51,411 bases of DNA from Phocaeicola dorei (GTDB lineage: Bacteria; Bacillota_I; Bacilli_A; RFN20; CAG-288), in assembly GCA_963622735.1 (NCBI GenBank), contig CAVFIT010000027.1, positions 1 to 51,411 on the forward strand, read 5' to 3'. The translations under genes were made by a program, and so were the position numbers. A model generated the notes under the pieces. The model searched no databases. It was not told the DNA's origin and was given only the letters and a program-made list of their open reading frames with translations. Positions 2,919-13,589 of the stretch are shown piece by piece; position 1 is the first letter of the stretch; each line of letters opens with the position of its first letter.

Positions 2919-3419
2919 ACTTATTCAGAAACAGATTTTGCCACATTCAAAGAAAAAGCTACAGAAGCTTTAAAATCAGAAACAACTTATTCTTCTTGTA
3001 AAGTTGCTTTGAAAAAAACAACAACTACTGGTGGTAAAACAACAAACGAAAATTATGAAATTGACTACACTATTAATGGAAGAACATTTGTTGCTAAAGC
3101 TGATGCAAAAGCTGAAGCTCTATTATTTGCAGATATTATAAACGTTTATACATTAGATACTTTAATTAAGGTTGATTTATCAAATAATACAACTTATAAA
3201 TTCTATACAGGTGCTGCATTTAAATGTGAAAGAACAGTAGAAAGTAGTTTTTCAGCTCTTGGTGTTAAGTATGAACAAAAGCTTGTTGATTCTATTGAAT
3301 ATGATAATGATGGTTTTATAAAGAACTTTAAAGAAACATCTACTGAAAAAGGTTCTAGTTCTAGCGCTTCAACTACTAATAGTGGTGAAGAAACAGTTAC
3401 ATTTACCTATACTAAGTAA
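2847..3419 (+). CDS. Lipoprotein of unknown function (paralog B)
   Basis: MQLNFLKKAAVLSLGLVSLVSC|G lipobox. Conserved blocks ETDFATFK, GRTFVAKADA, YKFYT and C-terminal TFTYTK are shared with paralog A. Confidence 0.85.
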   Translation: MQLNFLKKAAVLSLGLVSLVSCGSTYSETDFATFKEKATEALKSETTYSSCKVALKKTTTTGGKTTNENYEIDYTINGRTFVAKADAKAEALLFADIINVYTLDTLIKVDLSNNTTYKFYTGAAFKCERTVESSFSALGVKYEQKLVDSIEYDNDGFIKNFKETSTEKGSSSSASTTNSGEETVTFTYTK

Positions 3420-3441
3420 TTAATATATTTAAAATAATAAA

Positions 3442-3474
3442 AGGTTAACATTTTATAAGTGTTAATCTTTTTTA
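3442..3474. terminator. Bidirectional terminator between convergent genes
   Basis: AGGTTAACA (3442-3450) pairs with TGTTAATCT (3460-3468, one G-U pair), followed by a T6 run. Overlaps the stop of the minus-strand MATE gene. Confidence 0.6.
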
Positions 3475-4875
3475 GTTTTTTAAAAGTTTTTCTTGATTAA
3501 AGTTTTCTATTTCCATTTTCTTAAATACTTTAGGTATATAAATTAAATAACAAGTAGTTGAAATAATAGCAGAGGCTATATCACATAATGGTTCAGCATA
3601 AAAACACCCATCAACATTTTTAGTAATTAAAGGAATAATAAATACTGCAGGAATATAAATAAATACTTTTCTTGCTAAAGATAACCAAATGGAGAAATGA
3701 GCTTGTCCTAATCCAGTAAGACCATCTACAAATACATATTGGAAAGATAATGGGATGATACCTATCATATAAATAATAATAAATTTATATGCAGCATTTA
3801 CTATTTCCATATTGATGTTAGATTTTCCAATTCCTATAAATAAGGTTGCAAAAGGTTTAGCAAGCACAAAAGATAAACCAAAGCATATTGAAGTAAATAT
3901 TAGTGCAAATGCGATAAGCTGTTTTTCAGCTTTAATAATTAAATTTTTATTATTAGCTCCATAATTATAGCCAAGTATTGGTTGAGTACCACTAGATATT
4001 CCAAGAAGTGGACCAGTAATTAAAGTCATAAAAGCTTGAACGATTGTATTGACTTCAATATAAAAATCCCCTTGATTTCCGCCATGTAATTTTAAAGCTG
4101 TGTTTAATAAAATTAAAATTATAGAATCTGTAGCCATAATTATAAAAGGTGAAAATCCTAGTTTTAAAATTTGGCCCATTAATTTAATGTCGTAATTACC
4201 TAAAGATAATTTAATAGTTGCTTTTTTTATTAAAATAAATAATACAAATAAGAATGATATAAATTGAGAAATGATAGTAGCAGTAGCAGCCCCTTTAACA
4301 CCTAAATTAAAAGCGTACATAAATAATGGATCTAATCCTATATTTAATAAACATCCAATAATAGTAGTAGCCATAGCTTTAATTGATTCACCTTGAGCTA
4401 TTAAATACTGATTTAAACTAGAAGTTAAGACTGCAAAAAATGTGCCAATTAAATAGATATATAAATAGTCTTTAGCATAGGAAATAGAATTATCACTAGC
4501 GCCAAATAAATATAATAATTGAGTACCAAAACTATAGAAAATTATTATTAAGATGATAGAAATAACAATAGACATTAATAAAGCATTTGATAGTATTTTC
4601 TTTGCTTTAGGATAGTTTTTACTTCCAAGTGCCATTGAAAAAATAGGTGCACCACCTAGTCCAATCCAAGAAGCAAAAGAAGTTATAAAAGTGACAATAG
4701 GGGCACACACTCCTACACCAATTAATGCTATTTCACCTATGTTTGGTAAATTTCCTACATATATTCTATCTACTATGTTATATAAAACATTAATCAACTG
4801 AGCAATCATTGATGGAATTGCTAATTTAAAGATAGTTTTTAAAGTGTTTGAATCACCAAGATAGGAACTTTTCAT
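3472..4875 (-). CDS. MATE family efflux transporter
   Basis: 467 aa, about 12 TM; typical MATE N-terminus (LKTIFKLAIPSMIAQLINVLYNIVDRIYVG). Confidence 0.85.
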   Translation of the reverse strand: MKSSYLGDSNTLKTIFKLAIPSMIAQLINVLYNIVDRIYVGNLPNIGEIALIGVGVCAPIVTFITSFASWIGLGGAPIFSMALGSKNYPKAKKILSNALLMSIVISIILIIIFYSFGTQLLYLFGASDNSISYAKDYLYIYLIGTFFAVLTSSLNQYLIAQGESIKAMATTIIGCLLNIGLDPLFMYAFNLGVKGAATATIISQFISFLFVLFILIKKATIKLSLGNYDIKLMGQILKLGFSPFIIMATDSIILILLNTALKLHGGNQGDFYIEVNTIVQAFMTLITGPLLGISSGTQPILGYNYGANNKNLIIKAEKQLIAFALIFTSICFGLSFVLAKPFATLFIGIGKSNINMEIVNAAYKFIIIYMIGIIPLSFQYVFVDGLTGLGQAHFSIWLSLARKVFIYIPAVFIIPLITKNVDGCFYAEPLCDIASAIISTTCYLIYIPKVFKKMEIENFNQEKLLKN

Positions 4876-10611: not shown

Positions 10612-11205
10612 ATGGATTTTTTAAATATTTTTCTTGTCTCACTTTCAATGAGTGTAGACGCTATGACAGTTAATGCAACTAACGGTATTAAAAACGAGAA
10701 CATAAAAAAATACAAGCTTGTTTTAATTGGCTTAGTTTTTGGTGTGTTTCAGTTTGTTATGCCTTTAATAGGTTATTTTATAGCCTATGCTTTTAGGCAA
10801 TATTTAGATAATATTAAGACTGCTATTCCTTGGATTGCTTTTGCTTTGTTAATGTTTTTAGCTATTAATTCGTTTGTTGAATTTATTAAAGAAAGAAAAG
10901 CTAAAGATGATGAATTAACTCCTAAAGATGGTGATAAGATTTCTTTATGGACAATATTTACTCAAGCTATTGCTACAAGTATTGACGCGTTATGTATTGG
11001 TTTTGTTTATTGTACATCTACTATTCCTGATGCTTTAATTATATTTACTTGTATAGGTGTGACTACATTTATATTATCTGCTTTAACTGGATTATTTGCT
11101 AATAAGCTAGCTGGTATACTTGAAAAGTGGGCTTCTTTAATTGCTAGTATTGTATTTGTGATTGTAGCTATTAAGATTTTGCTTGAAGGTTTAGGAATTA
11201 TTTAA
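10612..11205 (+). CDS. mntP: Manganese efflux pump MntP
   Basis: 197 aa, 6 TM; duplicated motifs LSMSVDAMTV and ATSIDALCIG; preceded by the Mn riboswitch. Confidence 0.85.
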   Translation: MDFLNIFLVSLSMSVDAMTVNATNGIKNENIKKYKLVLIGLVFGVFQFVMPLIGYFIAYAFRQYLDNIKTAIPWIAFALLMFLAINSFVEFIKERKAKDDELTPKDGDKISLWTIFTQAIATSIDALCIGFVYCTSTIPDALIIFTCIGVTTFILSALTGLFANKLAGILEKWASLIASIVFVIVAIKILLEGLGII

Positions 11206-11212
11206 TTGTAGA

Positions 11213-11241
11213 CTATTTGATTAATTTCAAATAGTTTTTTT
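11213..11241 (+). terminator. Rho-independent terminator
   Basis: CTATTTGA / TTAATT / TCAAATAG followed by T7. Confidence 0.8.
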
Positions 11242-11310
11242 AAAAACAAATTTACTCCACAAATAATATAATTTTAGTAAAAGTGGAGTATAACATTAAT
11301 AGGTGATGTT

Positions 11311-11613
11311 ATGAATATTTTGGATGATGTATTATATAAAGAAAAACAAAGAAATATCAAAATGTAAGAACAATATAATCAGTTAATATCTAATATGCCG
11401 TTAGGATGTGTAATAATTAAAAAAATAGGTAACAATGAATATTGTTATTTACACTATAAAGAAAACGGCAAAACAAAAAATAAATATTATGGCGATATTT
11501 CAAAATATCAAGATTTAAAAAATGAAATTGATAAAAGAAAACACTATGAAAAAATGTTAAATATTCTAAAAAAAGAATATGTCAGAATAGAAAGGATGGA
11601 AAAAATTAAATGA
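11311..11613 (+). pseudogene. About 100-codon small charged protein gene interrupted by an in-frame TAA (11365-11367); the ORF-track piece is 11395..11613
   Basis: A good RBS (AGGTGA) precedes ATG 11311. Reading MNILDDVLYKEKQRNIKM*EQYNQLISNMPLGC... stays in one frame. There is no RBS before ATG 11395. Confidence 0.55.
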
Positions 11614-12098
11614 AATTATATTATGGGATAGATTTAATTGTCGATAATCCTAAAATAATCAGTGCAAATAGACCTTTAGATTTTGGCGATGGCTTTTATT
11701 TGACTACAAGTTATGAACAAGCTAAAAAATGGGCTTTAAGGGTTAAAACAAGAAATAATTCTAATGCTTGTTATGTGAATTTATATACAATCGATTTAGA
11801 TAAATGTTTAAATGAATTAACAGTGACTAAGTTTGATTTAGCTAATAAAGATTGGTTGGAGTTTGTTTGTAATAATAGAAAAGGAATTATTAGTTCATCT
11901 TATTATGATATGGCTATTGGACCAGTAGCTGATGATAGTGTATATTCACTAATTACTAGGTATGAAAATGGTATATATGATTTACAAGAAACGTTAAAAA
12001 GATTAAAAGTAGAAATACTTAAAGATCAAATATTGTTTCATACTGAAAAGTCACTTAAATATTTAACCTTTGAAGGAGTAGAAGAAATTTATGACTAG
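11610..12098 (+). CDS. DUF3990 domain protein
   Basis: 162 aa; N-terminal LYYG...PLDFGDGFYLTTSYEQAKKWA pattern recalled for DUF3990; ATGA overlap with the upstream gene. Confidence 0.7.
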   Translation: MKLYYGIDLIVDNPKIISANRPLDFGDGFYLTTSYEQAKKWALRVKTRNNSNACYVNLYTIDLDKCLNELTVTKFDLANKDWLEFVCNNRKGIISSSYYDMAIGPVADDSVYSLITRYENGIYDLQETLKRLKVEILKDQILFHTEKSLKYLTFEGVEEIYD

Positions 12099-12327
12099 AA
12101 AAGATTTTGAAGATTTGTTAACTATAATAGTTACTAATACTGTATCAATAATAATTAAACAGACAAAATGGGATGAAGAATACGCTTTAAATAGATTTAT
12201 AAAATCAAAAGTTTATAAAAATTTAGAAAAAGAAGACACAAAAGTGTGGCATTTAAGCCCTTTGATGCTTGCTAGATTATTTCAAGAAGAAAGAGAGGGA
12301 AATTTAGTATGGCCACAAATAATGTAG
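12091..12327 (+). CDS. DUF3791-like small helical protein
   Basis: 78 aa; 8-nt overlap with the DUF3990 gene. This is the typical companion position, and the sequence assignment is from memory only. Confidence 0.55.
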   Translation: MTRKDFEDLLTIIVTNTVSIIIKQTKWDEEYALNRFIKSKVYKNLEKEDTKVWHLSPLMLARLFQEEREGNLVWPQIM

Positions 12328-12533
12328 TTAGTAAAACATTAGAATTTAAGGTATATTGTTTTGAAGCGTATAAAAATAAATATGGATTAACTGGACAAGA
12401 ATGTTTAAATATTTTTAATAAATATAAAGTGTTCAATTATTTAAATGATTTTTATGATGTATTACACACTACATCTAATGAATATGTATTAGATGATATT
12501 GATATTTATATTAACGCACGTAAAGAAAAATAA
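12309..12533 (+). CDS. DUF3791 domain protein
   Basis: 74 aa; FKVYCFEAYKNKYGLTGQECLNIFNKYKVFNYLNDFYDVLHTTSNEYVLDDIDIYI matches the recalled DUF3791 pattern. Confidence 0.7.
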   Translation: MATNNVVSKTLEFKVYCFEAYKNKYGLTGQECLNIFNKYKVFNYLNDFYDVLHTTSNEYVLDDIDIYINARKEK

Positions 12534-12537
12534 TTTT

Positions 12538-12563
12538 AGAGTCATTTATTATGGCTCTTTTTA
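12538..12563 (+). terminator. Rho-independent terminator
   Basis: AGAGTCAT / TTATT / ATGGCTCT (one G-U pair) followed by TTTT. Confidence 0.65.
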
Positions 12564-12649
12564 TATTATTAGAGGATTTATTATGAAAAAAAATGATAAA
12601 AACGATAATAATCATCAAATTTATAATAACTATGATGAAGATTAATTTA

Positions 12650-12686: not shown

Positions 12687-12710
12687 AATACTTGTAATAG
12701 AGGATTAATT

Positions 12711-13589
12711 ATGCAATTTAGATTAATGTATCCAGGATTTAAGCCTAAAGCTTTTACTGTTAGTTATGATGATGGAATTATCCAAGATGTTAAATTAGTT
12801 GAAATATTGAATAAATATTCAATTAAGGGAACGTTTAATCTTAATAGTGGATTACAAGGACAAGAAAAGTTTAGAGATGGACTTTATCAAGATCATATTG
12901 ATTGTCATGTAATGAATTTTAAAGATTATCCTCATTTATATGATAATTTTGAAATTGCCTGTCATACTTATTCTCATCCTCATTTAGAAGATATTTCTTT
13001 TTCTAAACAAGAAGAAGAAATTAAAAAGAATATAGAATATTTAAATAAAGAATTTAATAGGAAAGTTCAAGGATTTGCATATCCTTATGGAACTTATAAT
13101 AAAGATAGTCTAGATGTATTAAATAAACTTGGTATTAAATACGCTAGAACAACTAAATCCACATATAGCTTTAATAGACCATATAATTTCTTATTATGGC
13201 ATCCTACTATTCATCATAGAGATCCTCATTTATTTGAGGTATTGGATAATTTCTTTCACAGTTATGATGAACTAGGAGTCTTCTATTTATGGGGACATGG
13301 TTATGAATTCGCCTTAGATGATAACTTTGATTTAATTGAAAGGGTTAGTAAAGTTATTTCTTCTCATAAGGAAGTGTTCTTAGCTACAAATTTAGAAATA
13401 TGTGATTATATTAAAGCAGCTGAGATGGTTTATTTTAGAAAGACGTCAAGTGGATATGATAATAATCAAGAAGAAGGTTATTTTTTTAATCCATCTTCTA
13501 TAGATGTTTATTTAATTACTCCTCAAGGCAAAAAACTAGTCGTGCATCCATTAGAAAGGTTACAATATCATGAACAAAAACAAATTTAA
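12711..13589 (+). CDS. Polysaccharide deacetylase (NodB homology / CE4-like), cytoplasmic
   Basis: NodB motifs FTVSYDDG and HTYSHPH; no signal peptide. Confidence 0.75.
   Translation: MQFRLMYPGFKPKAFTVSYDDGIIQDVKLVEILNKYSIKGTFNLNSGLQGQEKFRDGLYQDHIDCHVMNFKDYPHLYDNFEIACHTYSHPHLEDISFSKQEEEIKKNIEYLNKEFNRKVQGFAYPYGTYNKDSLDVLNKLGIKYARTTKSTYSFNRPYNFLLWHPTIHHRDPHLFEVLDNFFHSYDELGVFYLWGHGYEFALDDNFDLIERVSKVISSHKEVFLATNLEICDYIKAAEMVYFRKTSSGYDNNQEEGYFFNPSSIDVYLITPQGKKLVVHPLERLQYHEQKQI

Follow-up and report, generated by a model that had tools for sequence, protein, structure and literature searches.

Four small overlapping genes lie on one strand between mntP and a polysaccharide deacetylase gene, at positions 11311 to 12563 of a 51,411-nucleotide stretch of DNA (contig CAVFIT010000027.1 of assembly GCA_963622735.1, positions 1 to 51,411; the whole stretch is called the window below), and they raise the question of what such an islet does and whether this copy still does it. 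The original prediction took it for a toxin-antitoxin-like or conflict module that might be decaying. The toxin-antitoxin-like reading is supported by the match of three of the genes to the PDC-M13 models of PADLOC, by the placement of the DUF3990 family among the ADP-ribosyltransferases, by the use of a DUF3990 domain in an Rhs effector and by fold matches to the toxins ParT and RES. Our verdict, reached from sequence comparison, is that the module appears to be a decaying member of a catalogued family of toxin/immunity or defence candidates. More precisely, we think it reasonably probable that the islet derives from a four-gene form of candidate system PDC-M13 and has since degenerated. The core family is already catalogued in PADLOC. 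What is new is modest and consists of a putative regulator-plus-operator variant and of natural alleles in which the predicted toxin is lost.

Relationship to candidate system PDC-M13

Numbered in order along the strand, genes 2, 3 and 4 match PDC-M13A (E 5.8e-58), PDC-M13B (E 1.9e-21) and PDC-M13C (E 5.7e-26), and lie adjacent on the same strand (11610-12533) as one operon. The PDC systems, described by Payne, Hughes, Fineran and Jackson (bioRxiv 10.1101/2024.01.29.577857), are 145 candidates derived from genes that lie within BREX, DISARM or type I restriction-modification (R-M) loci. In rumen genomes, PDC-M13 was called 3,324 times, which places it among the commonest candidates. It was defined through guilt by embedding, whereas the copy in the window lies outside any defence locus, carries an additional DUF6788-type gene (gene 1) and a putative operator, and is damaged by mutation.

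Relatives were collected by scanning a single genome for each species, which returned at least 493, and 84 loci (L numbers below) were examined. Genes 2, 3 and 4 occur together in 83 of the 84, in the order 2-3-4 in 78; gene 3 was found in every locus and gene 4 in 83. Sixteen of the 84 also have gene 1, each time directly upstream of gene 2, and the five further gene 1 homologues that we looked up all precede DUF3990, gene 3 and DUF3791. The genome of the window holds a single DUF3990 copy.

Organisation of the islet

Open reading frame (ORF) calling with translation table 11 gives four ORFs between mntP (10612-11205) and the deacetylase gene (12711-13589): 11395-11613 (72 residues), 11610-12098 (162 residues), 12091-12327 (78 residues) and 12309-12533 (74 residues). 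The first is a remnant without a ribosome-binding site; its frame extends upstream to an ATG at 11311, which is preceded by a ribosome-binding site (AGGTGA, 11301-11306), and is interrupted by a TAA. The features are as follows.

11210-11241, + strand: intrinsic-terminator-like hairpin with T-run that ends mntP and marks the left edge of the islet; 11-bp A/T-rich stem (inverted repeat I14)
11253-11294, + strand: promoter with putative operator; perfect 8-bp inverted repeat TACTCCAC (11253-11260) / GTGGAGTA (11283-11290)
11311-11613, + strand: gene 1, 100 codons, small protein of DUF6788 type, putative autoregulator, broken by an in-frame TAA at 11365-11367
11610-12098, + strand: gene 2, DUF3990 protein of 162 residues, putative toxin, with H5Y (codon 11622-11624, CAT to TAT) and T7I
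12091-12327, + strand: gene 3, 78-residue partner of the PDC-M13B family, intact
12309-12533, + strand: gene 4, 74-residue DUF3791 partner, intact
12538-12563, + strand: intrinsic terminator of the operon; 8 pairs, of which 3 are G-C, then a T-run

The layout that had been proposed, with four small genes that overlap by ATGA (genes 1 and 2), 8 nucleotides (2 and 3) and 19 nucleotides (3 and 4), a stop codon in gene 1 and a terminator on either side, was borne out. Both hairpins are more stable than every shuffled sequence (upstream, dG -10.7 kcal/mol, z -4.4; downstream, dG -9.0, z -5.2). The consensus terminator scan scored only the downstream hairpin; the upstream one went unscored because its stem is entirely A/T.

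Gene 2 and its predicted fold

The assignment of the 162-residue protein to DUF3990 holds over its full length, with a match to PF13151 at E 3.7e-45 (153.8 bits against a gathering cut-off of 32.2; all 152 model positions covered). In Pfam, the family belongs to the ADP-ribosyltransferase clan (PMC7955679), and DUF3990 forms the C-terminal domain of Rhs5, a type VI secretion system effector of Serratia (PMC4524185). We built an AlphaFold (AF2) model from an alignment of 41 sequences (mean predicted local distance difference test, pLDDT, 92.3). The original prediction had asked whether such a model would reveal an ADP-ribosyltransferase-like fold; the top Foldseek matches are all ADP-ribosyltransferases, with modest scores (E about 0.015). 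In the PDB, the sole high-probability matches are ParT (6d0i, 6d0h) and a RES toxin (9r35), at probabilities of 0.95-0.96; Arr and LT-IIB appear lower in the list as weaker matches. We suggest from the model that gene 2 adopts an ADP-ribosyltransferase-like fold that best resembles these two toxins. Gene 2 has no match to the RES domain in Pfam, and searches against solved structures with all four proteins and their profiles returned nothing meaningful.

The family has a near-invariant YHGS motif on strand 1 and an invariant DFGxGFY motif leading into strand 2. These would correspond to the His and Tyr motifs of the H-Y-E/D transferases, a comparison that draws on established knowledge of that class and has no tested alignment behind it. 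At the position of the NAD-binding histidine (the end of strand 1, H-G-S/T), the family reads Y-H-G-S and the copy in the window reads Y-Y-G-I. The conserved strand 1 histidine is a feature of the DUF3990 family and not of this copy.

ParST and the Xre-RES systems (6d0h, 6d0i, 9r35), as the closest structural matches, offer the nearest comparison. They are small toxins using nicotinamide adenine dinucleotide (NAD) in compact autoregulated operons, and some DUF3990 relatives likewise have Xre-type helix-turn-helix (HTH) partners. Unlike DUF3990, with which they share no sequence similarity, they have an R-E-S motif where DUF3990 has H-G-S and G-F-Y, and they are preceded by one upstream antitoxin, whereas here two small non-HTH partners are encoded downstream. 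CmdTAC (which has three parts; PMC11618068) and DarTG also have an effector with this fold restrained by co-encoded proteins, as we propose for the present system. However, no homology was detected to CmdT, CmdA, CmdC or DarT/DarG, and none of the four proteins matched a SecB-like chaperone, CmdC or a macrodomain in Pfam or PADLOC. In Rhs5 of Serratia marcescens, DUF3990 is the predicted toxin tip and is followed by a downstream immunity gene (PMC4524185), but it is a polymorphic tip on a large secreted protein, whereas the DUF3990 protein of the window belongs to a stand-alone cytoplasmic operon.

Two arrangements in relatives of the window's genome illustrate the pairing with Xre-HTH partners, which is a toxin-antitoxin-like layout. 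At L094:1258-2115, an Xre-HTH domain is fused to the N-terminus of DUF3990 and a 160-residue protein follows; at L089:1489-2773, a 227-residue DUF3990 protein is followed by a 206-residue protein with a C-terminal Xre-HTH.

The fold itself is shared by non-toxic enzymes, and Arr is among the weaker matches, so that DUF3990 could instead be a benign enzyme that handles NAD or ADP-ribose or modifies nucleic acid (Tpt1- or Arr-like), with the small proteins as substrates or cofactors; the literature, which holds no toxicity data for DUF3990, is compatible with this. We consider it very unlikely. The best fold matches are toxins of toxin-antitoxin systems, the domain serves as an Rhs effector tip, the gene layout and the Xre partners of relatives are those of toxin-antitoxin systems, and null alleles of the enzyme gene recur with the partner genes intact. 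The distribution is also patchy and mobile, with the DUF3990 family found in 11 of 41 relatives of the window's genome. We therefore continue to treat gene 2 as a predicted toxin.

Probable decay of the copy in the window

We polarised the substitutions by comparing the window with a relative that is about 98% identical and has the same flanks (L001, L002) and with an outgroup module (L003) that occupies a different chromosomal site. In L001 and L002, gene 1 is intact at 100 codons and gene 2 begins LYHGT. Against these, the window has three derived changes at key sites, all of them C/T: codon 19 of gene 1 has changed from CAA (the codon in L001, L002 and L003) to TAA, turning Q19 into a stop; gene 2 has CAT to TAT (H5Y); and the -10 box has changed from TATAAT to TATAAC. 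Gene 2 also carries the derived change ACA to ATA (T7I). The odd N-terminus of DUF3990 that had been remarked on (LYYGI in the window, YHGS in the family consensus) and the stop in gene 1 are therefore both derived, as the suggestion of decay implied.

The sites that have changed are otherwise well kept. Every one of the 83 readable gene 2 copies from other loci keeps the His-Gly pair, and the -10 box is TATAAT in 16 of 17 other copies that bear the repeat, the remaining one being CATAAT in the decayed L025, whose gene 2 is split. Between the window and L001, we counted 9 nonsynonymous and 6 synonymous differences in gene 2, and 3 and 8 in the other three genes combined; these counts are small. 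We conclude from the sequence that the module is a decaying copy and probably dead, because the putative regulator has a stop, the predicted toxin has lost its key histidine and the promoter is weakened. From these three lineage-specific lesions, the toxin is probably inactive and the operon poorly expressed, with the two partner genes intact.

Of course, the module might still function: H5Y could be tolerated or alter specificity, gene 1 could be dispensable and TATAAC might not be the true -10 box, or the changes could be consensus errors in the assembly. The source genome is a metagenome bin of 1.2 Mb in 161 contigs, 77% complete. Gene 1 is absent from 68 of the 84 loci (about 80%), so the trio can exist by itself; the remainder of gene 2 is intact, as are genes 3 and 4. 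We nevertheless judge a working module improbable, as all three changes are derived and each falls on the most conserved element of its feature, no other readable copy among the 83 lacks the His-Gly pair, and gene 2 shows an excess of nonsynonymous change. The sole other Tyr-for-His copy that we found, L112 (P0003), is itself a wreck: its motif reads YYAS, gene 1 is missing and gene 3 is interrupted by a stop. A decaying copy remains our preferred reading.

Upstream of gene 2 in this copy (L112:1-360), tandem repeats of AAATTACAA(C/T) occupy the place where gene 1 would be, and a remnant, GTGAAGTATAAT, stands directly before gene 2.

Loss of the predicted toxin is not confined to the window; broken copies have arisen independently. 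In a gut lineage (L105, L107, L108 and L109; about 3300-3800), DUF3990 reads MKLYHGSNAAAA-stop-PKL..., with the stop at codon 13 and the frame otherwise open. Genes 1, 3 and 4 of this lineage are intact, and it is represented in more than 200 assembly blocks (the index lists its gene 1 protein, P0140, in 210). In L106, the module breaks off after gene 2 and gives way to DNA containing ArdA. Taken with the nonsense alleles, the natural change from His to Tyr suggests that the histidine of YHGS is the residue whose loss would neutralise the toxin, and these alleles would provide a ready catalytically dead control. The window copy is itself a poor experimental subject; intact modules of the L001, L003, L110 and L111 types are suitable.

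Gene 1 and the promoter palindrome

Gene 1 matches PF20586 weakly in hmmscan (13-14 bits against a cut-off of 27.2). Three of 14 gene 1 relatives reach E <= 0.1 against this family (best, 7e-4), and a precomputed PF20586 match is recorded for all 120 listed gene 1 homologues. It has no match among the PADLOC models, so that the four-gene variant lies outside them. An exhaustive profile search gave 1,734 representative clusters, whose proteins are nearly all about 100 residues long and stand alone, and fusion of gene 1 into larger proteins was rejected on this basis. In one protein of 5,185 residues (P0319), 16 separate stretches match the gene 1 profile, probably a repetitive coiled-coil artefact. 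The modules with gene 1 do not form one clade; they fall into at least seven groups on the gene 2 tree, which is weakly resolved, the protein being short.

The arms of the perfect 8-bp repeat upstream of gene 1 bracket the -35 element and overlap the -10 box, the downstream arm running into 11289-11294 (TATAAC in the window, TATAAT in relatives); across loci, the spacer usually contains a TTGAC -35 element. The repeat is kept in L001 and in L003, where the spacer has diverged, and its arms covary among loci (TACCCCAC, TACACCAC, TACACAAC, TACTCTAC). This layout was found in 15 of 17 loci with gene 1, in 5 of 65 loci without it (none perfect) and in 4.6% of shuffled sequences. The palindrome over the -35 and -10 elements is conserved in, and nearly limited to, the variant that bears gene 1. 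Since the repeat is tied to gene 1, covaries and is wrapped around the promoter, gene 1 is probably the operator-binding autoregulator of the four-gene variant. The PADLOC model of PDC-M13 omits both this optional fourth gene and a clear candidate operator.

One locus without gene 1 (L082:5850-6000) has a convincing promoter palindrome (TACACAGC...GTTGTGTA TATAAT), the only such case, which suggests a recent loss of gene 1.

The controller (C) proteins of R-M systems are HTH proteins. Gene 1 resembles them in being a small putative regulator gene translationally coupled to a downstream gene for a predicted toxin, with a putative palindromic operator overlapping its own promoter; it differs in structure, its model (pLDDT 94.5) placing a three-stranded sheet between a first helix and a long second one, and its binding to DNA is something we infer.

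With this helix, beta, helix topology, the model is about as similar to prefoldin beta subunits as to integrase arm domains, weakly so in both cases, and tripartite systems that pair an ADP-ribosyltransferase with a chaperone exist (CmdTAC, PMC11618068). Gene 1 might accordingly be a coiled coil of the prefoldin kind that serves the toxin complex as chaperone or adaptor, as in toxin-antitoxin-chaperone systems, with another protein binding the repeat. We think this unlikely: the repeat is nearly confined to loci that have gene 1, its arms covary between loci as expected of a co-evolving dimer that is encoded by the module and reads both half-sites, and neither the window proteins nor the gene 1 relatives have a SecB-like match. 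Returning to the autoregulator, a bolder proposal, which we offer tentatively and hold to be possible rather than probable, is that DUF6788 represents a new class of small DNA-binding controller, with two long helices on either side of a three-stranded sheet and distantly like the integrase arm-type and AP2 domains, that reads a co-evolving palindrome, TACnCnAC-N22-25-GTnGnGTA, clamped around the toxin promoter. If this is true, the controller would time the expression of the toxin when a mobile cassette enters a new host, and the recurrent toxin-null alleles (H5Y and the codon 13 stop) would represent losses of control survived only by killing the toxin.

Genes 3 and 4

Gene 4 belongs to DUF3791 (PF12668, E 3.2e-22, 78.7 bits against a gathering cut-off of 25). 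Gene 3, whose protein in the window is identical to that of L001, has no match in Pfam, and DUF3791 was found in none of 34 gene 3 relatives. The two had been predicted to be a pair of DUF3791 proteins; this stands for gene 4 and is wrong in detail for gene 3, because neither gene 3, nor its relatives, nor its profile matches DUF3791. We also considered whether they might be paralogues and rejected this, the profile-profile comparison not being significant (hhalign probability 1%). By these comparisons, gene 3 is a separate family. The window proteins had no matches in NCBIfam and nothing significant in PHROGs.

Proposed mechanism

We suggest that an intact gene 2 would encode a toxin of the ADP-ribosyltransferase type (H-Y-acid class) that depends on NAD. 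Genes 3 and 4, small helical proteins that are nearly always inherited with it, most likely keep the toxin inactive and could act as a two-part antitoxin, an immunity factor or a sensor. Release of the toxin might be triggered by, for example, phage infection or loss of the element. The DUF6788-type gene 1 would be an optional add-on that most likely binds the inverted repeat and autoregulates the operon in the manner of an R-M controller protein.

Several observations weigh against this reading. For gene 2, the resemblance in fold has modest scores (E about 0.015, template modelling score 0.44-0.51), protein and profile searches give no sequence-level link to any solved structure, and the catalytic residues that could be placed are the first two. 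The matches of the gene 1 model are weak and non-significant (integrase arm-type and AP2 DNA-binding domains, and also prefoldin), and because of this it is the co-occurrence with the repeat that argues for DNA binding. As the original prediction had stated for DUF3990 and DUF3791, the literature contains no experimentally shown activity for these families, nor for DUF6788 or PDC-M13, and no published mention of DUF3990 tests its function. The window copy itself is surrounded by metabolic genes and lies outside any defence island; its three substitutions come from a bin that is 77% complete, and a tyrosine at position 5 of gene 2 might retain some activity.

Distribution and biological role

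The linkage of these genes had been described as recurrent in Firmicutes, which proves too narrow: the trio occurs in Bacillota and also in Bacteroidota, Spirochaetota, Planctomycetota, Verrucomicrobiota, Fibrobacterota and others. The cassette's flanks are highly variable. The original prediction had asked for neighbourhood statistics near defence islands: of the immediate upstream neighbours across the loci, about one in seven belongs to a type I R-M, type IIG or BREX system; the copy in the window does not lie in a defence island.

The family is found on 86 of 72,556 plasmids in PLSDB, many of them small and non-mobilizable, and in 9 of 50,697 phage records. The loci of gene 1 homologues often adjoin RepA_N, integrase, excisionase-type HTH, ArdA or PemK genes. 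These facts, the rarity in phages included, together with a promoter-overlapping palindrome typical of autoregulated toxin-antitoxin operons, are what would be expected if the family served chiefly in addiction (post-segregational killing), keeping plasmids and integrative elements stable, and not in anti-phage defence. We regard this as possible, if less probable than not. The PDC systems were derived by PADLOC from genes within BREX, DISARM and type I R-M loci, several of our loci directly adjoin HsdM, HsdS or PglX genes, and the two roles are in any case not exclusive.

Boundaries of the islet

Homology with the same-genus genome G002 ends at window position 11207, close to the hairpin that ends mntP. 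No empty site was found in the nine same-genus genomes examined. In these congeners, the two flanks lie on separate contigs or are followed by other genes and are not adjacent; therefore, no clean insertion junction can be drawn. Direct repeats flanking the islet are short and A/T-rich only. The best candidate for a target-site duplication (18 nucleotides, 83% identity, at 11198 and 12670) lies inside native sequence and was judged to be due to chance. The islet is slightly more A/T-rich than its surroundings (G+C content 22-25%, against 25-38% in the flanks), and base composition was set aside as a mark of foreign origin, this slight difference not being diagnostic.

We note that beyond the right-hand terminator, the start of the deacetylase gene together with its ribosome-binding site (TAATAGAGGATTAATTATG) is duplicated 128 nucleotides upstream (12567-12588 and 12695-12716, 86% identity over 22 nucleotides). 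The duplicated copy heads an ORF of 20 codons (12583-12645), in a stretch that differs from L001.

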